32,000 nucleotides of DNA from Geotalea uraniireducens Rf4 (lineage in GTDB: Bacteria; Desulfobacterota; Desulfuromonadia; Geobacterales; Geobacteraceae). The stretch covers positions 4,740,001-4,772,000 of the forward strand of contig NC_009483.1 in assembly GCF_000016745.1 (NCBI RefSeq), given 5' to 3'. How positions within the stretch are numbered: position 1 is the first letter of the stretch; each line of letters begins with the position of its first letter. The translations under genes and the position numbers were made by a program. Under the pieces are notes generated by a model. The model worked only from the letters and a program-made list of their open reading frames with translations. It ran no database searches and had not been told where the DNA came from. Of this stretch, positions 2,497-32,000 are shown piece by piece.

Positions 2497-3588
2497 ATGG
2501 GAACACAAAGAAAACATACCTACATAATTGCCGAGGCCGGCGTGAACCACAACGGTTCGCTGAAGATGGCCAAGGAACTTGTGGAAGCCGCCGCAAACGC
2601 AGGCGCGGACGCTGTCAAATTCCAGACATTCAAGGCGGAGAAGCTCGTCAGCCGCAACGCCCCCAAGGCTGGCTACCAGACGATGACGACGGACGCCGCC
2701 GAGTCCCAGTTCGACATGATCAGGAAGCTTGAGCTCGACGAGGAGGCGCACCGCGTACTCATCGAGCATTGCCATGTAAAGGGGATACAGTTTCTCTCCA
2801 CCCCGTTCGACTTCGACAGTCTGGAGATGCTGGCGCGGACCTTCGACCTCCCCCGCCTGAAGCTCCCGTCGGGGGAGATCACCAACGCCCCGCTGCTTTT
2901 GCGGGCGGCGCGCACAGGCAAACCGGTCATCCTCTCCACCGGCATGAGCACCCTGGGCGAGGTGGAGGCAGCCCTCGGCGTCCTTGCTTTCGGCTACGCT
3001 GCCCGGAAAGATGCGGCGCCTTCGCCCGCAGCTTTCCGGGAGGCTTACGGTTCCGCCGCAGGGCAGGAAGCGTTGGAGCGGAACATGGTGCTCCTCCACT
3101 GCACCACCGAATACCCGGCCCCCTTTGACGAGGTGAACCTGCGCGCCATGGACACGCTGCAAGACGCCTTCGGACTGCCGGTCGGCTTTTCCGACCACAC
3201 CACCGGCGTTGCCGTTCCCATCGCCGCCGCGGCCCGGGGAGCAATGGTGATCGAAAAGCATTTCACACTTGGACGCGACCTGCCGGGGCCGGACCACAAG
3301 GCATCGCTGGAGCCGGGCGAGCTGACCGAGATGGTTAAGGCCATACGTCAGGTGGAGCTGGCCCTGGGCAGCCGTCTCAAGGCGCCGACCATGTCCGAGT
3401 CGAAGAACATGTCCGTCGCGCGCAAGAGCCTCGTAGCGGCGGAACCGATCCGCACGGGGGACTTTTTCACCGGGAAAAACGTGGCCGTGAAGCGTCCGGG
3501 CAACGGCATGTCCCCCTTTCTCTATTGGGACGTCCTCGGCAAGAGGGCGTCAATGAATTTTGAACGCGATGAGGTGATACTCCCATGA
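2497..3588 (+). CDS. neuB: Nonulosonic acid synthase (N-acetylneuraminate/legionaminate synthase, NeuB/LegI family) with C-terminal SAF domain
   Basis: YIIAEAGVNHNGSLKMAKELVEAAANAGADAVKFQTF is the classic NeuB N-terminus. Also present are HCTTEYPAP and GFSDHT, and a C-terminal SAF-like segment (ARKSLVAAEPIRTGDFFTGKNVAVKRPGNG). Confidence 0.9.
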   Translation: MGTQRKHTYIIAEAGVNHNGSLKMAKELVEAAANAGADAVKFQTFKAEKLVSRNAPKAGYQTMTTDAAESQFDMIRKLELDEEAHRVLIEHCHVKGIQFLSTPFDFDSLEMLARTFDLPRLKLPSGEITNAPLLLRAARTGKPVILSTGMSTLGEVEAALGVLAFGYAARKDAAPSPAAFREAYGSAAGQEALERNMVLLHCTTEYPAPFDEVNLRAMDTLQDAFGLPVGFSDHTTGVAVPIAAAARGAMVIEKHFTLGRDLPGPDHKASLEPGELTEMVKAIRQVELALGSRLKAPTMSESKNMSVARKSLVAAEPIRTGDFFTGKNVAVKRPGNGMSPFLYWDVLGKRASMNFERDEVILP

Positions 3589-4223
3589 GCCTGCCGGTCG
3601 TGATACTGGGCGCCGGCGGCCACGCACGGGTGCTTCTGGAGGCCCTGCGCTCGGCGTCCCGCCAGGTGGCGGGAATCGTCGATGCCGATCCGGCAAGGAT
3701 CGGAGAAACCGTCATGGGGGTACTGGTCATCGGCACGGACGAAAAGGTTTTTGACTTTCGGACCAACGAGATTGAGCTCGTGAACGGCATCGGTTCGGTG
3801 GCCTCGACGGCAAAAAGGGTGGAACTCTTCGCGGCGTTCAAGGCCCACGGCTACCGGTTTGCCACTGTCGTGCACCCCTCGGCGGTCATTGCTTCGGACG
3901 CGGAACTGGCGGAAGGGGCACAGATCATGGCAGGGGCCGTCATCCAGGCGGGAGCGAGCATCGGCATGAATTCCATCGTCAACACACGCGCCGCCGTCGA
4001 TCACGACTGCCGCATCGGCGCAGGCGTCCACATCGCGCCGGGAGTCACCCTTTCCGGGGACGTCCGGGTGGACGACGACGTACACATCGGCACCGGTGCA
4101 ACAGTGATCCAGGGAGTACATATTTCCGGAAAAAGCGTCGTCGGCGCAGGGTCGGTCGTCCTGCGCGACGTTCCAGGAGGGGTCACGGTCTACGGGGTCC
4201 CCGCACGTGAGGCACGAAAATGA
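3585..4223 (+). CDS. NeuD/PglD-family hexapeptide-repeat sugar N-acetyltransferase (LegH-like)
   Basis: The ATG overlaps the neuB stop (ATGA at 3585-3588). N-terminal Rossmann-like VVILGAGGHARVLLEAL is followed by left-handed beta-helix repeats (IGAGVHIAPGVTLSGDVRVDDDVHIGTGATVIQGVHI). Confidence 0.8.
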   Translation: MSLPVVILGAGGHARVLLEALRSASRQVAGIVDADPARIGETVMGVLVIGTDEKVFDFRTNEIELVNGIGSVASTAKRVELFAAFKAHGYRFATVVHPSAVIASDAELAEGAQIMAGAVIQAGASIGMNSIVNTRAAVDHDCRIGAGVHIAPGVTLSGDVRVDDDVHIGTGATVIQGVHISGKSVVGAGSVVLRDVPGGVTVYGVPAREARK

Positions 4224-12719: not shown

Positions 12720-12735
12720 AGCAATTAGGGTGCCA
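12720..12735 (-). promoter_or_regulatory. Sigma54 (-24/-12) promoter candidate for fliD-fliS
   Basis: The minus strand reads TGGCAC-CCTAA-TTGCT, which matches TGGCAC-N5-TTGCW completely. It lies 26-41 nt upstream of the fliD ATG. Confidence 0.55.
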
Positions 12736-13897: not shown

Positions 13898-13924
13898 TTA
13901 TCGGAGGCGCCGGCAGAAACTTTA
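13898..13924 (-). promoter_or_regulatory. Sigma28 (FliA) promoter of fliC
   Basis: The minus strand reads TAAAGTTT-CTGCCGGCGCC-TCCGATAA against the consensus TAAAGTTT-N11-GCCGATAA. That is 8/8 and 7/8 matches with exact spacing. Confidence 0.85.
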
Positions 13925-18004: not shown

Positions 18005-18367
18005 TCAGTAAACATTTTTTAAACCGCCATTTTCAGGTTCAACTTTTTTGTCCTGCCGTACCAGTTGCTTTTCGATCATCCGGGCCAACCCCACGCCGCC
18101 GCTGTCGACAACACCCTTTGCATATTCCTGATCCAGAAGAGACTGGTAAACTTCTTCACCATGCCCCCCCCCGGTCAGTTTGTCCTTGCCGACCGTTTCC
18201 CGCATGGACTTGAGCATCATGCCGACAAACATGACTTCAAACTCGCGGGCCACTTTTTTGGCAGCCGCCTTCTCCTTTTCGGCAGATTGCGGCTGAAACT
18301 TTAGCGATTGCCGTAATTTCACATCCTCAACAGGCATGGCCGTCACCGGCGTTGTGCTAACATCCAT
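18005..18367 (-). CDS. flgJ: Rod-binding protein (FlgJ N-terminal domain only; no muramidase domain)
   Basis: Track ORF 18005..18415. The first 16 codons are read-through of the heptad array, so I prefer ATG 18367 (MDVSTTPV...). FEVMFVGMMLKSMRETV...EVYQSLLDQEYAK is the rod-binding motif. Confidence 0.75.
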   Translation of the reverse strand: MDVSTTPVTAMPVEDVKLRQSLKFQPQSAEKEKAAAKKVAREFEVMFVGMMLKSMRETVGKDKLTGGGHGEEVYQSLLDQEYAKGVVDSGGVGLARMIEKQLVRQDKKVEPENGGLKNVY

Positions 18368-18376
18368 ATAATTCCC

Positions 18377-18459
18377 CCACCGACCACCGACCACCGACCA
18401 CCGACCACCGACCACCGACCACCGTCTGCCGTCTGCCGTCTGCCGTCTGCCGTCTGCCG
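18377..18459. repeat. Heptanucleotide tandem arrays (CCACCGA)x7 then (TCTGCCG)x5, filling the flgI-flgJ spacer
   Basis: Read directly: 18377-18424 holds 6 perfect copies plus one 6/7 copy, and 18425-18459 holds 5 perfect copies. In mRNA sense this is (CGGCAGA)5(CGGUGGU)7. Confidence 0.95.
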
Positions 18460-18465
18460 ACCGCC

Positions 18466-19572
18466 CTAAATGACCATCAATTCGGCATTCAGCGCACCCG
18501 CCGCCTTGATCGCCTGCATGATGCCGATCAGGTCGCGGGGGGTTACGCCCAGGGCATTGAGCGCCCGTACCACGTCGCCGATGTTCGCACCCTGCTGCAA
18601 AATCGCCAGGCTGCCCCGGTCCTCGGTTACCTTGATCGATGTACGCGGCACCACTTTTGTTTCGCCCGTGCTGCTAAACGGTGCGGGCTGGGAAACCCGC
18701 GGCGTTTCCTTGACGTAGAGGGTGAGGTTGCCGTGGGAAACCGCCACCGTGGAGATACGCACGTTCTCGCCGATGACTATCGTGCCGGTCCGTTCATTGA
18801 GGACCACCCTGGCCATGACATCCGGGGTCACCTCAAGCCGCTCCAGCGCCGCCACGAACTCCACCGTTTTTCCCTGATAGTCATCGGGAATGGCGAGTTG
18901 CACGGAACCGGGATCGGTCAGGGACGCCACCGTCATCTTGAATTTATTGTTGATGACCGCCGCCACCCGTGACGCTGTAGTGAAGTCCGGCTGGTGAAGA
19001 TTCAGCCTCAGCTGGCTTCGACCAGCCAGTACATTGGGGAGCTCCCGCTCGACAAGGGCTCCGCCCGGCACCCGGCCGGCGGTCGGATGATTCTTCTGCA
19101 CCGATGCCGCCTGGCCGCCATAGGAGAAAGAGTTGGTAAGCACCCCTCCCTGTGCCACCGCATAGATTTGGCTGTCGGCACCTTTCAACGGTGTCATCAG
19201 GAGCGTTCCGCCTGCCAGACTCTTGGAGTCTCCAACCGATGAAACGAGCACGTCGAGACTGTTCCCCTGCTTGGCAAACGGCGGAAGCGCCGCCGTCACC
19301 ATCACGGCAGCCACGTTTTTGACGGTGATGTCGGCACGATTGATCGTTATCCCCATCCGTTCCAGGGTGTTCACCAGGGACTGGACCGGAAACTTGGTCT
19401 GGTCGCTGTCGCCGGTGCCGTTCAGGCCGACGACGAGCCCGTAACCGATGAGCTGGTTCTCCCGCACCCCGTCGAACGCGGCAATATCCTTGATGCGAAC
19501 CGCCAGGGCAAACTGCGGGAGGGCCAGGAGCAGAAACGCAGCAAAAACTATTTTTCGAAAAATACTATTCAT
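18466..19572 (-). CDS. flgI: Flagellar P-ring protein FlgI
   Basis: Signal peptide MNSIFRKIVFAAFLLLALPQFALA, then VRIKDIAAFDGVRENQLIGYGLVVGLNGTGD. The track starts at GTG 19575; ATG 19572 is equally possible. Confidence 0.95.
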   Translation of the reverse strand: MNSIFRKIVFAAFLLLALPQFALAVRIKDIAAFDGVRENQLIGYGLVVGLNGTGDSDQTKFPVQSLVNTLERMGITINRADITVKNVAAVMVTAALPPFAKQGNSLDVLVSSVGDSKSLAGGTLLMTPLKGADSQIYAVAQGGVLTNSFSYGGQAASVQKNHPTAGRVPGGALVERELPNVLAGRSQLRLNLHQPDFTTASRVAAVINNKFKMTVASLTDPGSVQLAIPDDYQGKTVEFVAALERLEVTPDVMARVVLNERTGTIVIGENVRISTVAVSHGNLTLYVKETPRVSQPAPFSSTGETKVVPRTSIKVTEDRGSLAILQQGANIGDVVRALNALGVTPRDLIGIMQAIKAAGALNAELMVI

Positions 19573-19635
19573 CACCCTTCACCCTTCACCCTTCACCCTT
19601 CACCCTTCCGACCACCGACCACCGACCACCGACCG
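19573..19635. repeat. Heptanucleotide tandem arrays (CACCCTT)x5 then (CCGACCA)x4, in the flgH-flgI spacer and abutting the flgI start
   Basis: Read directly. In mRNA sense this is (UGGUCGG)4(AAGGGUG)5-AUG. CCGACCA is the same cyclic unit, in the same orientation, as the 18377-18424 array. Confidence 0.95.
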
Positions 19636-21907: not shown

Positions 21908-22034
21908 GTTCTATGTTCTATGTTCTACGTTCCAGGTTCAAAGTTCAAAGTTCAAAGTTCAAAGTTCGAAGTTCGAAGTTCGAAGTTCGAAGTTCGAAGT
22001 TCGAAGTTCAAAAGCTAAATCTTAGAACTTAGAA
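21908..22034. repeat. Heptanucleotide tandem array GTTCNNN x15 plus (CTTAGAA)x2, filling the flgF-flgG spacer
   Basis: Read directly. 21908-22012 holds GTTCTATx2, GTTCTAC, GTTCCAG, GTTCAAAx4, GTTCGAAx6 and GTTCAAA. 22021-22034 holds CTTAGAAx2. Confidence 0.95.
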
Positions 22035-22038
22035 CCGT

Positions 22039-27957: not shown

Positions 27958-27973
27958 TGCAACCGGTGTGCCA
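27958..27973 (-). promoter_or_regulatory. Sigma54 (-24/-12) promoter of the flhA operon
   Basis: The minus strand reads TGGCAC-ACCGG-TTGCA, a full match to TGGCAC-N5-TTGCW. It lies 52-67 nt upstream of the flhA ATG. Confidence 0.8.
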
Positions 27974-29485: not shown

Positions 29486-29488
29486 GGT

Positions 29489-29632
29489 ACGAGGATAAAG
29501 GAACGAGGTCCGAGGGTTATCCTTTATCCTTTGGCCTCGTTCCTTTTTCCTCGATCCTTTTTCCTCGATCCTTTTTCCTCGATCCTTTTTCCTCGTTCCT
29601 TTTTCCTCGCGCCTTTATCCTCGTCGTGCGTC
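29489..29632. repeat. Composite repeat: 14-nt tandem array (CCTCGWTCCTTTTT, about 6 copies at 29535-29618) bracketed by an inverted repeat
   Basis: Read directly. The left arm ACGAGGATAAAGGAACGAGG (29489-29508) is complementary 18/20 to both 29535-29554 and 29605-29624. There is also a local perfect 10-bp hairpin, GGATAAAGGA (29493-29502) with TCCTTTATCC (29520-29529). Confidence 0.9.
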
Positions 29633-29771
29633 CATCCTTTTTTCCCTTCATTGATCAGGCAGCAATCACCACAATCACACAATCGCTTTAATGAAGAGTG
29701 TTTCCGGTGGCCATCTCGGTCAAATTCTGCTATGAATGGCCACATCGTCAACCTATAAACCCGTGGAAACA

Positions 29772-31109
29772 ATGACCAATCTTCAAGAAACCGAAACCGT
29801 TGAGCTGAAGAAATCCACCTCCGAGCTGAAGGAGGGGGTGATCTCCATTGTGGCTATGTTGAACAAGCACCAGCGGGGAGAAGTCTGGTTCGGCATCAGG
29901 AACGACGGCGCAGTAGTCGGTCAGCAGGTTTCCGAAAAGACGCTCCGCGACATCTCCAAGGCGATTGCCGACCACGTTGAGCCGAAAATCTATCCCGTTA
30001 TCGAGCAGTCTGCGGTCGGTTCCAGGCAGTGCATCAGGGTGCAGGTCGAAGGCAAGGAGTATCCTTATTATGCCTATGGCCGGGCGTACATCCGGGTCGG
30101 AGACGAAGACCGGCAGCTGAGCGCCAAGGAGCTTGAAAACCTGATCCTGGGGAAAAACCGTGACCGGCTCCGCTGGGATACGGAGGTCTGCGACAAGGCA
30201 ACCATTGACGATATCGGGCCGGGCAAGCTGAAGTCATTCCTGAAGCTATGCGGGCTCAAGTTCGATACCATCCCCAATTCCCTCGAAAAGCTGAATCTCA
30301 TCAAGGCCGGCAGGCTCCTGAATGCCGCTGTGCTCTGTTTTGCCCGCAAGCCGGAGAAGTTCTTTCCCAACGCCAGGCTGCGTTGTGCCGTGTTCGGGAC
30401 ACTTGACACCACAGTTACCATTGGCATGAAAGACTATTATGGCGATGTCTTTGCCCTGATCAACAAGGCTGAGGAATACATCCTTGAGCATATCAACATC
30501 GGCATGCGGCTGGAGGGGATGCTGCGGGTGGATGTTCCCGAAATCGACCCTGAAGCGTTTCGTGAAGGGATTATCAATGCCTTCTGTCACCGGGACTATC
30601 GGGAGTATGATTCTGTCAACATTGCCATCTTCAAGGATCGGGTGGAGATCAGAAGCCCCGGCCTGCTTTATGGCGGGCTTACCATCGACACTATCAGAAA
30701 GAAGATGGTATCTGCCCGGCGTAATGAGCTGTTGGCGGAGCTGTTCCAGCGCAGTCATCGCATCGAAAAATGGGGCCGAGGCATCAAGATGATCCTGGAG
30801 CGGGAACCGGCTACAGAGTTCGAAGAAGTGGGAACGGTGCAGTTTGTTGCTACGTTCAAAAGAAAGAATGTGGAGGCTTTTCCGTCCATCAGTGTCGGTG
30901 AAACTACCCAGAAAACTACCCAGAAAACTACCCAGAAAATTCTTGAACTGATTGTCAGCAATCCAAGAATCAGCCGTATCGAACTGGCAGCAGAAATCGG
31001 AATTACTGCGGATGGCGTAAAGTATCAGTTGGACAAATTAAGGAAGCAAGGGATTCTAAAACGTATCGGGCCTGATAAGGGCGGGTATTGGGAGATCGTG
31101 AAAGAGTGA
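29772..31109 (+). CDS. AlbA_2 (Schlafen-like) DNA-binding domain + HATPase_c_4-like domain + C-terminal winged-HTH protein (often annotated RecG-like ATP-binding protein / transcriptional regulator)
   Basis: Track ORF 29736..31109. ATG 29772 (MTNLQETETVELKKSTSELKEG...) fits the usual family N-terminus. GEVWFGIRNDGAVVG and AFCHRDY...SPGLLYGGLT...RRNELLAELFQRSHRIEKWGRGI are present. The C-terminal ILELIVSNPRISRIELAAEIGITADGVKYQLDKLRKQGILKRIG is a wHTH. Confidence 0.7.
   Translation: MTNLQETETVELKKSTSELKEGVISIVAMLNKHQRGEVWFGIRNDGAVVGQQVSEKTLRDISKAIADHVEPKIYPVIEQSAVGSRQCIRVQVEGKEYPYYAYGRAYIRVGDEDRQLSAKELENLILGKNRDRLRWDTEVCDKATIDDIGPGKLKSFLKLCGLKFDTIPNSLEKLNLIKAGRLLNAAVLCFARKPEKFFPNARLRCAVFGTLDTTVTIGMKDYYGDVFALINKAEEYILEHINIGMRLEGMLRVDVPEIDPEAFREGIINAFCHRDYREYDSVNIAIFKDRVEIRSPGLLYGGLTIDTIRKKMVSARRNELLAELFQRSHRIEKWGRGIKMILEREPATEFEEVGTVQFVATFKRKNVEAFPSISVGETTQKTTQKTTQKILELIVSNPRISRIELAAEIGITADGVKYQLDKLRKQGILKRIGPDKGGYWEIVKE
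30903..30938 (+). repeat. In-frame 12-nt tandem repeat (ACTACCCAGAAA)x3 encoding TTQK x3 in the linker before the wHTH
   Basis: Read directly from DNA and from the translation (GETTQKTTQKTTQKIL). Confidence 0.9.
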
Positions 31110-31300
31110 TGGTGCCCCTGTCTCCGTTTCCCGAATTTGACGGAAACGATGCAAAAGTGCTGATTGGGATGGATGGGGAGTGAGGGGGAGTGATGGATGC
31201 ATGTTCTGCCGAAATGGAAAACGGTGATATCCATTCACGGCTGTTTTGGCACCGTACTTCATTTACAAATCTGTTGTCGCGTAAAATAGAGGTCTGATAG

Positions 31301-31861
31301 ATGATTCAAAAAGAGTTAGAAGTCATTTTAAGCCGATACACTCAGGCCCGCATGGGAGAACCATTTAACGGCGAGCATGAAATATTTTCAAATTTTGAAG
31401 CAATACGAGAGGCGTTAGCGCAATCAGAAGCAGTTCAAAGTCGGCCACATCTCCGTGTGAAATACAGCGCAGGACAAGGTAATTGGGCAAGAGTGCCATG
31501 GATTGCATTTCTTGATTCAAGAGAAACAACAACAACCCAAAAGGGAGTTTATTGCGTTTATCTATTTCGACAAGATATGTCTGGTGTTTATATTACCTTT
31601 AATCAGGGTGTTACAGAGCTGATTAGGCAAAATGGAAGACCACGAGCTCATCAGGAATTACAAAAACGTGCTGAAGCAATACATCAATATTGCTCAGGTC
31701 TTCCTTCCAAAGGTTTTTCGCTTATAAAAGGAATAGACCTTCGAGCAGATGCTGGCTTAGGTGCTGACTATGAGTACTCAACTATTGCTTATAAATTTTA
31801 CGAGGCCGGCAATATGGCTCCTCGACGAATTGAGTGGGTAGCCTGGGCCGGGTTGATGTAA
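31301..31861 (+). pseudogene. N-terminal (DUF3578/MrcB-N-like) fragment of a McrB-type restriction GTPase, apparently truncated
   Basis: KYSAGQGNWARVPWIAFLDSRETTTTQKGVYCVYLFRQDMSGVYITFNQG matches, from memory, the McrB-like N-terminal DNA-reader domain. No AAA/GTPase domain follows. The last ~15 codons (MAPRRIEWVAWAGLM*) look like read-through into inserted DNA. The region is visibly AT-richer than the rest of the window. Confidence 0.55.
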
Positions 31862-32000
31862 GATAGGCCACCATCACTCAGCCTGGAGGTTAGTAATCGC
31901 TATGAATCCTGAAGATCTTTTTGGTGCTGCTCTTGGAATTGCCATCCCGTGGAAGGTTACCTCTGTTGACTTCAACAAGAAGTCAAGTCGTTTGGACATA
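31816..32000 (+). mobile_element. Left end of an ISL3-family insertion sequence (extends beyond the window)
   Basis: A transposase start follows at 31902. GGCTCCTCGACGAATTGAG at about 31816 resembles ISL3-type terminal repeats (GGCTCTT...). The exact boundary is uncertain. Confidence 0.45.
31902..32000 (+). CDS. ISL3-family transposase, N-terminal 33 codons (partial)
   Basis: MNPEDLFGAALGIAIPWKVTSVDFNKKSSRLDI fits the ISL3 transposase N-terminal pattern (LLGL/I-x-x-PW-x-V-x-x-V-x-F/L ...). GGAGG lies 12 nt upstream. Confidence 0.6.
   Translation, partial: MNPEDLFGAALGIAIPWKVTSVDFNKKSSRLDI

Follow-up and report, generated by a model that had tools for sequence, protein, structure and literature searches.

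A probable slippage-generated compound heptanucleotide microsatellite between the flagellar genes flgI and flgJ in a Geobacteraceae genome

Upstream of the Haemophilus influenzae genes hmw1A and hmw2A, 7-bp repeats constitute an expression rheostat based on simple sequence repeats (SSRs), and the STRR elements of cyanobacteria have the heptanucleotide units CCCCAGT, TTGGTCA, and CAACAGT. The STRR of Calothrix PCC 7601 are cited as three tandem heptanucleotides (in PMC4692102). Heptanucleotides are, according to Mrazek (2007) as reported in later papers (PMC4692102, PMC4679880), the most abundant class of long SSRs in many prokaryotes and were attributed to polymerase slippage; the hypothesis of Mrazek et al. 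(2007), reported in the same two papers, was that the polymerase holds a segment of about 7 nt, which would favor slippage. The heptamers described by Rehm et al. (2015, PMC4692102) have the units GGGAATC in Xanthomonas and GGGGAYT in Nostoc, fold into G-quadruplexes (G4s) in vitro, and had no function found for them; the Xanthomonas repeats occur between the same genes in two species and differ there in length and sequence. In marine Beggiatoaceae, TAACTGA direct repeats are located just upstream of start codons and a translational role was proposed for them (MacGregor, 2015, PMC4679880). Tandem heptamers in Geobacter genomes, which a first-pass annotation of the locus studied here had mentioned, are indeed on record for G. 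metallireducens, where Gmet_H4 consists of four GGACCGG units at 49 sites and class 3 of five MTYCTGA units (Aklujkar et al., 2009, PMC2700814). IHF/HU-type proteins were suggested to bind the heptanucleotide and octanucleotide families in that genome (PMC2700814).

The locus described here lies in a stretch of DNA of 32 kb, referred to as the window, and comprises the spacer between the minus-strand genes flgI and flgJ. The best matches of the FlgI protein were those of a Geobacter metagenome-assembled genome (91% identity), Geotalea sp. SG265 (88%), and G. toluenoxydans (87%), which assigns the window to the Geobacteraceae. Read directly on the sense (minus) strand, the spacer is TAG-GGCGGT-(CGGCAGA)5-(CGGTGGT)6-CGGTGGGGGAATTAT-ATG, and its parts and neighbors, in 5' to 3' order on that strand, are as follows.

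18466-19572, minus strand: flgI, P-ring protein (Pfam PF02119, E 2e-145)
18460-18465, minus strand: GGCGGT, the first heptad in degenerate form, adjoining the flgI stop codon (sequence, orthologue comparison)
18425-18459, minus strand: (CGGCAGA)5, the 5' array in mRNA sense (TRF and sequence); not similar to a Shine-Dalgarno (SD) sequence, predicted anti-SD pairing about -2.8 kcal/mol
18377-18424, minus strand: (CGGTGGT)6 plus CGGTGG, the 3' array, with 13-14 GG tracts (TRF, anti-SD energies, fold with G4 terms)
18368-18376, minus strand: GGGAATTAT, made up of the proximal SD G-run, into which the last heptad passes without a break, and of the spacing before the flgJ ATG; predicted SD energy -8.4 kcal/mol
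18005-18367, minus strand: flgJ, rod-binding domain only, 120 aa (Pfam PF10135, E 4e-17; 120 aa also in the Logan gene call)

Two period-7 arrays were reported by TRF, both with 100% matches: 18377-18424 with 6.9 copies of CCACCGA on the plus strand (score 96), and 18422-18459 with 5.4 copies of CCGTCTG on the plus strand (score 76). Together they occupy 83 bp of a spacer of 98 nt (18368-18465), and the 3' array ends 9 nt from the flgJ ATG. The first-pass annotation had seen correctly that two heptad arrays fill the spacer; its count of seven CCACCGA copies has to be amended to six full copies and a CGGTGG that merges into the SD G-run (6.9 copies), and its figure of 84 bp in a 97-bp spacer was slightly off. 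A single register, CGG-NNNN, is common to both arrays and to the GGCGGT that follows the flgI stop codon, and the heptad phase extends from the last G of the flgI TAG to the SD (lag-7 segment 18372-18467). The structure is far beyond chance. An autocorrelation scan of the window at lags 4-12 yielded three lag-7 segments, all of them in flagellar spacers, and one in-frame coding repeat at lag 12; across the whole window, lags 4-6 and 8-11 gave nothing comparable. Logan assemblies made independently from four sequencing runs reproduced the flanks and the array ends, with contigs that break at the arrays, which excludes a faulty assembly of the window as their source.

The 7-nt units follow one another without gaps in the DNA that separates the FlgI stop from the FlgJ start, so that the repeat is, as had been stated before, neither a protein-coding repeat nor a CRISPR array, which consists of repeats of 23-50 nt with unique spacers. 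A phase-variation locus of the SSR type was likewise rejected, since the arrays are located between the flgI stop and the flgJ SD and neither within an ORF nor between promoter elements. The spurious N-terminal extension of flgJ that had been pointed out was confirmed: an ORF of 136 aa (18005-18415), beginning with MVGGRWSVVGGRW, starts from an in-frame GTG at 18415 inside the array, compared with 120 aa for flgJ itself. In relatives with short spacers FlgJ starts at the equivalent ATG.

The two genes belong to the minus-strand cluster flhA-flhF-flhG-fliA-flgF-flgG-flgA-flgH-flgI-flgJ-flgM-flgN-flgK-flgL-csrA-fliW-fliC-fliD. The promoters of this cluster and the further repeat arrays of the window are listed below.

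27959-27973: perfect sigma-54 promoter, TGGCAC-N5-TTGC, upstream of flhA
13899-13924: sigma-28-type promoter, upstream of fliC
12721-12735: another sigma-54 promoter, upstream of fliD
21908-22035, minus strand: arrays of the flgF-flgG spacer, (GTTCTAA)2 ... (GAACTTY) with about 11 copies, and (GAACRTA)3 (TRF, sequence)
19572-19634, minus strand: arrays of the flgH-flgI spacer, CGGTGGT with about 4 copies and then (AAGGGTG)5, which adjoins the flgI ATG (TRF, sequence)
29517-29623, plus strand: period-14 (2 x 7) array, seven copies of ATCCTTTTTCCTCG, downstream of an Omp85-family gene (TRF, sequence, fold, Pfam)

No sigma-70, sigma-54, or sigma-28 promoter and no intrinsic terminator was detected by promoter and terminator searches of the flgI-flgJ spacer, and Rfam 15 gave 0 matches at the gathering threshold over the whole window. 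The term intercistronic is therefore apt, and transcription would be expected to run through the spacer. Heptad arrays were present in all three intra-operon spacers longer than 50 nt (3/3) of the sigma-54 flagellar operon, and without their arrays these three spacers would measure about 15-22 nt, like the neighboring ones. The first array of the flgH-flgI spacer has the same unit, CGGTGGT, as the flgI-flgJ array, so that (CGGTGGT)n stands on both sides of flgI, where 27 bp are repeated exactly and in direct orientation at 18380 and 19608; the adjoining (AAGGGTG)5 (19572-19608) fits the G3N4 criterion for a G-quadruplex. The flgF-flgG spacer consists of about 130 nt of heptads and is self-complementary in the predicted fold by means of a TTCGAA palindrome. 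Altogether the window contains at least five arrays in four spacers, with at least five unrelated units within 12 kb, and because one array follows the Omp85-family gene such arrays are not restricted to flagellar genes. None of the units GGACCGG, MTYCTGA, STRR1-3, TAACTGA, GGGAATC, and GGGGAYT occurred in tandem in the whole window.

An exact-protein look-up of FlgI retrieved three Logan contigs (L081, L082, and L083). Two of them, L081 and L083, were identical to the window and ended after four CGGCAGA units plus CG, which is explained by the k=31 graph having to branch at this point if there are at least five CGGCAGA units. The contig L082, with 3 substitutions in 1166 bp (99.7% identical to the window), reads GGCGGT(CGGCAGA)3CGGTGGTCGGTGGTCG and thus has three CGGCAGA units compared with five in the window. 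A 31-mer that spans the left flank, exactly three units, and the start of the next unit type is impossible from a five-unit allele, and an allele shorter by two units therefore exists in the L082 sample. The evidence for a difference in copy number between strains is good but not conclusive, as it consists of one short-read de Bruijn contig in which PCR or sequencing slippage is possible; within these bounds it bears out the earlier suggestion that the spacer is variable in copy number.

For the comparison with relatives, FlgI-anchored loci from 80 species genomes of the Geobacteraceae/Desulfuromonadales (929 kb) were collected; exact-protein look-ups of the genes at the edges of the window, made to enlarge the genomic sample, returned no matches. 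TRF on related loci, a check that the first-pass annotation had proposed, gave 41 arrays of period 7 in the 80 loci, 0 of period 6, and 2 of period 8, and additional ones at periods 14, 21, and 28. Mapping of orthologous genes by tblastn yielded 162 intercistronic spacers with lengths of 40-350 nt, of which 51 had their best autocorrelation at lag 7 (shuffle expectation 16). The strongly periodic spacers had this lag in 20 of 22 cases (expectation 0.15), and coding controls yielded multiples of 3 only. Heptad arrays were found in 16 of 39 flgF-flgG spacers, the favored site, in 7 of 38 flgH-flgI spacers, and, besides the window, in 2 of 38 flgI-flgJ spacers, the rarest site. The idea of an element special to the junction of ring and rod genes was not supported by this comparison, given the arrays in the flgH-flgI, flgF-flgG, and one non-flagellar spacer and the rarity of arrays at flgI-flgJ (2/38). 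The sense-strand purine content of the arrays (0.62) was close to the value for ordinary spacers (0.59), which is what amplification of local spacer sequence would give. This enrichment is significant against 0.5 but equals the spacer background and was rejected as a sign of selection.

At the flgI-flgJ site itself, the orthologous spacers of close relatives divided into two kinds: arrays with different units in L001 (FlgI 91% identical), with (TGGTGAT)3.4, and in L012 (83%), with about 5.7 copies of GTGARGA, and non-repetitive spacers without an array in L002 and L016 (87-88%). The start (A)GGCGGT is common to the flgI-flgJ spacers of the window, L001, and L012 and to the flgH-flgI spacers. 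Geomonas species have a flgI-flgJ spacer of 9-17 nt, and many other Geobacteraceae have a sigma-28-type promoter, TAAAGTTT-N11-CGATAA, in this spacer, which is absent from the clade of the window. Since most relatives have a short spacer or a promoter here, the site is normally a short coupling spacer or a promoter, and the heptad tract is a recent, clade-specific, and fast-changing filling.

The unit CGGTGGT is not confined to this lineage. A scan of metagenomes for (CGGTGGT)3 or longer returned more than 120 unrelated contigs among the matches listed, and 80 of these, with GC contents of 0.40-0.76, were examined. Their arrays had 3-10 units, were intergenic in about two-thirds of the cases, and typically adjoined units that differ by one base (CAGTGGT, CGGTGAT, CGGTAGT); an inverted partner array lay 9-72 nt downstream in 8/80. 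Strain variants of the window locus were sought among the 80 contigs and none was related to the window. In co-directional contexts, with crude ORF calls, the metagenomic arrays displayed no bias toward the sense strand (7 sense vs. 12 antisense). CGGTGGT is a recurrent product in many bacteria and, as it is found in many unrelated metagenome contigs, no Geobacter signal.

We consider it probable that the flgI-flgJ spacer is a slippage-generated, copy-number-variable compound heptanucleotide microsatellite, that is, a long SSR, and the other readings have to be weighed against this one. On the mRNA the two arrays could pair, (CGGCAGA)5 with (CGGUGGU)5 by way of G-U pairs, into a long imperfect intercistronic hairpin for processing or stability, comparable to REP/BIME elements. 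RNAfold predicted just this pairing for the 98-nt spacer (MFE -41.6 kcal/mol, z = -4.6 vs. dinucleotide shuffles), which depends on G-U pairs (-20.8 without them) and is much weaker on the antisense strand (-12.7), and other arrays do form hairpins, namely that of flgF-flgG (-41 kcal/mol) and the inverted arrays in Geomonas. The z-score is, however, an artefact, because a repeat is compared with shuffles: under a null that keeps the repeat architecture, with letters permuted within units, the mean was -37.6 vs. -37.4 kcal/mol for the observed core, and 52% of the nulls were at least as stable, so that the two arrays pair no more stably than expected by chance. An inverted repeat was sought in the flgI-flgJ spacer and none was found, and the arrays of L001 and L012 have no partner array. 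A REP/BIME-type hairpin was rejected on these grounds, its fold energy being that of the unit-permutation null mean and its self-complementarity not exceeding chance, and a role of such pairing is hardly probable. Somewhat less improbable, though still very unlikely, is that the heptads are bound by a protein that recognizes DNA or RNA at 7-nt intervals, either an RNA chaperone of the cold-shock-domain or S1-like type with one molecule on each heptamer or a DNA-binding protein of the nucleoid or IHF/HU type. That period 7 and particular spacers are so strongly preferred across the lineage hints at something beyond random slippage, three heptads measure 21 bp or about two helical turns, CspB of B. 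subtilis binds heptamer repeats with one protein per unit (reviewed in PMC4679880), and tandem repeats of G. metallireducens were read as sites of global regulators (Aklujkar et al., PMC2700814). Against such a protein speak the units themselves, which differ completely between spacers and between close relatives, as would not be expected for a sequence-specific binder, as well as the lack of the published families (GGACCGG, MTYCTGA, STRR1-3, TAACTGA, GGGAATC) in tandem in the window and of any candidate protein encoded beside the arrays.

A third possibility, unlikely but to be taken more seriously and a sharpened form of what the first-pass annotation had suggested, is a selected translational tuner in which the CGGUGGU units set FlgJ relative to FlgI by offering 30S subunits or post-termination ribosomes places to land or decoys, by forming two-tetrad RNA G4s, or by both, with the gain and loss of units acting as a heritable rheostat. 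What is new here is the predicted anti-SD complementarity of the CGGUGGU units. When calculated with a generic bacterial 16S 3' tail (GAUCACCUCCUUU), which may not be the host's own, the pairing energy of each unit is about -11.9 kcal/mol, within the top 0.2% of all heptamers; a unit thus equals the best of the operon's genuine SDs (-4.4 to -12.2 kcal/mol) and is stronger than that of flgJ (-8.4). Six predicted decoy ribosome-binding sites would accordingly precede flgJ, in an array whose copy number varies and which ends so close to the ATG. Neighboring arrays of the clade are also SD-like on the sense strand, AAGGGUG being in the top 1.3%, UGGUGAU of L001 in the top 2.1%, and GUGAGGA of L012/L016 in the top 1.5%. 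By the same calculation the CGGCAGA half and the units of all flgF-flgG arrays are not SD-like, and SD-like members of the same unit family occur in L016 and L002 at the 3' end of a motB-like gene, where no co-directional downstream start is apparent and the neighbor looks, by eye, convergent. The metagenomic arrays lack a sense bias, a spacer of 9-17 nt suffices in most relatives, and a native SD region as the seed, from which the units may simply descend, would by itself account for their SD-likeness. As to G4s, the first-pass annotation had called the repeat compatible with two-tetrad quadruplexes, and this much stands: with its 13-14 GG tracts and loops of 1-2 nt, the CGGUGGU part was predicted to form two of them in the minimum-energy fold when the G4 terms of ViennaRNA were switched on (-51.5 vs. 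-41.6 kcal/mol), and G-rich heptamer repeats of other bacteria fold into G4s in vitro (PMC4692102). Quadruplexes of two tetrads nevertheless tend to be weak, and the terms in ViennaRNA lack calibration for this type. A role of G4s is not specifically supported: G4 formation is not the trait common to heptad arrays, because most other arrays of the same operon and of relatives have no G tracts (GAACUUC, GAACAUA, AAAACCU, AACGUUG) and the metagenomic arrays have no sense preference. In a joint and more far-reaching reading, which we regard as distinctly doubtful, the heptad arrays are a selected, evolvable layer of Geobacteraceae flagellar regulation, with the units as anti-SD ladders and the 27-bp repeats permitting the loss of flgI. 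Arrays would then be retained at junctions despite the turnover of their units, at flgF-flgG in many genera and at flgH-flgI as well as flgI-flgJ in the Geotalea-like clade; CGGUGGU and AAGGGUG ladders, possibly G4-forming, would capture terminating ribosomes, and unit gain and loss would shift the stoichiometry between ring and rod proteins in a heritable way. Flanked by the 27-bp direct repeats, the P-ring gene flgI could occasionally be lost precisely.

Returning to slippage, which we favor as the mechanism on account of the perfect units, the single register, and the variation in steps of whole units, the following course of events is put forward. The array most likely grew by replication slippage from a short native flgI-flgJ spacer of about 15-25 nt. 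One single-register array would have diversified by point mutation into CGGCAGA and CGGTGGT, both unit types would have been amplified, and units would still be gained and lost. The array is presumably transcribed as non-coding intercistronic RNA of the long sigma-54 operon from flhA to fliW, and it would be tolerated in the spacer because changes in copy number touch no reading frame. Effects on expression may arise as side-effects and are probably by-products rather than dedicated design. The flgI stop and the flgJ start are now 98 nt apart instead of about 10-15 nt, which may have loosened translational coupling, and six strong anti-SD-complementary, G-rich sites (possible two-tetrad G4s) would now precede the real ribosome-binding site of flgJ; the gain and loss of units could therefore modestly and heritably shift the output of flgJ. 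Any such effect on translation is proposed from sequence features. Slippage alone gives no account of the recurrence at flgF-flgG across genera (16/39) or of the strength of the period-7 preference, in which positional selection or a specific mechanism may be involved. The presence of CGGTGGT on the sense strand of two adjacent spacers, with its extreme likeness to an SD, could reflect selection rather than descent. The preference for period 7, the recurrence at the same junctions across genera, and the SD-likeness within the clade are the reasons for which the minority functional reading is kept alive.

If slippage is the right explanation, the value of the finding is mostly practical: the arrays create false N-terminal extensions in gene calls and break short-read assemblies at every flagellar spacer, and they are ready-made strain-typing (VNTR) markers for environmental Geobacteraceae. 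They also provide a clean and well-anchored example of an old pattern, namely that bacteria favor 7-nt units in non-coding DNA. The recurrence at the same junctions across genera together with the extreme predicted anti-SD complementarity makes them a concrete system in which polymerase geometry can be set against function.

When the locus is compared with the known systems, it resembles the cyanobacterial STRR in being built of intergenic tandem heptamers with several unit types per genome, and GTGGTCG, a register shift of the unit found here, agrees with the STRR2 unit TTGGTCA at 5/7 positions. Membership in the STRR was rejected, as 0 tandem STRR units are present in the window and the host belongs to the Geobacteraceae. 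By analogy with hmw1A and hmw2A, expression could be graded by the number of units in a non-coding heptamer array that precedes a gene; the hmw array, however, is located in the promoter and 5' region of a surface adhesin gene, whose transcription it affects, in a pathogen adapted to its host, whereas the array described here is intercistronic and no promoter was detected. Like the TAACTGA repeats of the Beggiatoaceae, the heptamers are direct repeats before start codons (PMC4679880), but many units, longer arrays, and normal SDs are found here. The G. metallireducens families Gmet_H4 and class 3 come from the same bacterial family and are intergenic tandem heptanucleotides read as possible regulatory elements (PMC2700814). 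They are dispersed multicopy elements, detected through BLAST matches from site to site, whose unit and number of copies (4 or 5) are fixed (PMC2700814), in contrast to the longer, perfect, locus-specific, and variable arrays of the window, and membership in either was rejected because neither GGACCGG nor MTYCTGA occurs in tandem in the window (0 matches). With the repeats of Rehm et al. (PMC4692102) the arrays share that they are G-rich intergenic heptamers, often near an ORF and sometimes within operons (e.g., pecE/pecF), that in related species they lie between the same genes while differing in length and sequence, and that both occur at times as inverted pairs. The Rehm units have tracts of G3-4 and form stable G4s in vitro, whereas the CGGTGGT and CGGCAGA units offer GG only, two tetrads at best, and do not provide the at least four tracts of at least three G that define the Rehm type. 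The latter also have one dominant unit family with a preferred size of four units (PMC4692102), compared with the at least five unrelated units within 12 kb of the window. The closest correspondence is with the long SSRs of Mrazek, which, as they are summarized in later papers, share with the present arrays the perfect non-coding 7-nt tandems, the several arrays per genome, the favored period 7, the turnover of length and sequence, and the proposed origin by polymerase slippage. The survey of Mrazek, Guo, and Shah (2007), as far as these summaries render it, is one of genome statistics, in which Geobacteraceae flagellar operons, compound two-unit arrays, and anti-SD complementarity do not figure. 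The flgI-flgJ array is tandem beyond chance, non-coding, polymorphic (in a single contig) with turnover between species, and part of a lineage-wide excess of period 7, and it is thus a genuine but ordinary member of the known class of heptanucleotide microsatellites.

Heptad arrays also occupy the flgH-flgI spacer, so that flgI is flanked by repeats that include an exact direct duplication:

19572-19634, minus strand: flgH-flgI spacer arrays, (CGGTGGT) in about four copies followed by (AAGGGTG)5
18380-18406 and 19608-19634: exact 27-bp direct repeat CCGACCACCGACCACCGACCACCGACC, one copy on each side of flgI

The (AAGGGTG)5 array directly abuts the flgI ATG and contains five GGG tracts separated by 4-nt loops, which makes it a predicted three-tetrad G-quadruplex (G4) candidate of a more canonical form than the flgI-flgJ array. 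The energies predicted by ViennaRNA with G4 terms were -33.2 vs. -14.4 kcal/mol. Recombination or slippage between the 27-bp repeats could precisely delete the P-ring gene.

The most intriguing aspect is the recurrence of heptad arrays at the flgF-flgG position, where they fill the spacer in 16 of the 39 related genomes, spanning several genera and using different repeat units:

21908-22035: flgF-flgG heptad arrays in the window
approximately 3450-3730: flgF-flgG heptad arrays in the related loci L002, L005, L006, L008, L016-L019, L023, L027, L029, L031, L037, L041, and L043

A GTTC/GAAC core or a palindrome (TTCGAA, AACGTT) occurs in many of these arrays. The spacer in Geomonas consists of (CGTTCRA)3-4, a gap of about 80-100 nt, and (CGTTGAA)3-5, the two arrays being inverted. 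Self-folding of the window's flgF-flgG array yielded -41 kcal/mol.

In two Geotalea genomes, a motB/ompA-like gene is followed, 3' of its stop codon, by arrays of the same unit family as those at flgI-flgJ, in what appears to be the 3' region between convergent genes:

L016, 12649-12699: TGGTGAT and (GTGAGGA)7.3
L002, 12640-12666: GAAGAGT

Heptads resembling Shine-Dalgarno (SD) sequences are therefore not limited to sites upstream of start codons. In metagenome contigs unrelated to the window (L088, L111, L114, L125, L135, L155, L160, and L165), paired inverted arrays were found in which (CGGTGGT/CAGTGGT)n is followed after 9-72 nt by (ACCACYG)n, with the G-rich arm first in eight cases vs. 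one. These pairs may represent widespread hairpins built from heptads.

The short-read Logan contigs of the organism (L081-L086) stop at every heptad array: flgI is the only gene of a contig about 1.2 kb long, and flgG-flgA-flgH share one of 2.4 kb. This is a practical caution for Geobacteraceae assemblies and MAGs.

Repeats of other periods were located towards the right end of the window:

29486-29623: strong hairpin immediately 3' of an Omp85-family gene, with a period-14 array
30901-30939: perfect 12-nt repeat AAACTACCCAGA, 3.2 copies, within a Schlafen/AlbA_2-HATPase_c_4-HTH ORF (29736-31109)

The 3' arm of the hairpin runs on as the period-14 array, (ATCCTTTTTCCTCG)7, and the whole looks like a terminator-like stem with one arm amplified. 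The 12-nt repeat would encode an in-frame 4-aa repeat. From 29736 to 32000 the GC content falls to 0.44, and the proteins encoded there are one of Schlafen/AlbA_2 type and one of MrcB_N (McrB-like N-terminal) type; this region may be a small defence or foreign-DNA islet adjoining the flagellar cluster.

Promoter matches were as follows:

27959-27973, minus strand: sigma-54, perfect match to TGGCAC-N5-TTGC, upstream of flhA
12721-12735, minus strand: sigma-54, perfect match to TGGCAC-N5-TTGC, upstream of fliD
13899-13924, minus strand: sigma-28-type, TAAAGTTT-N13-CCGATA, upstream of fliC
just past approximately 7100 in L006, L013, L019, L022, L023, L029, L032-L034, L037, L040, L043, and L049 (related loci): sigma-28-type, flgI-flgJ spacer

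The window's own matches suggest that flhA to fliW form a single long sigma-54 operon. The flgI-flgJ promoter, TAAAGTTT-N11-(T/C)CGATAA, is conserved in many Geobacteraceae and is preceded 5' by TGAACA-N3-5-TGTTCA and an A-rich tract. The flgI-flgJ spacer of the window's clade lacks this sigma-28-type promoter, and the regulation of flgJ-flgM therefore differs between clades.
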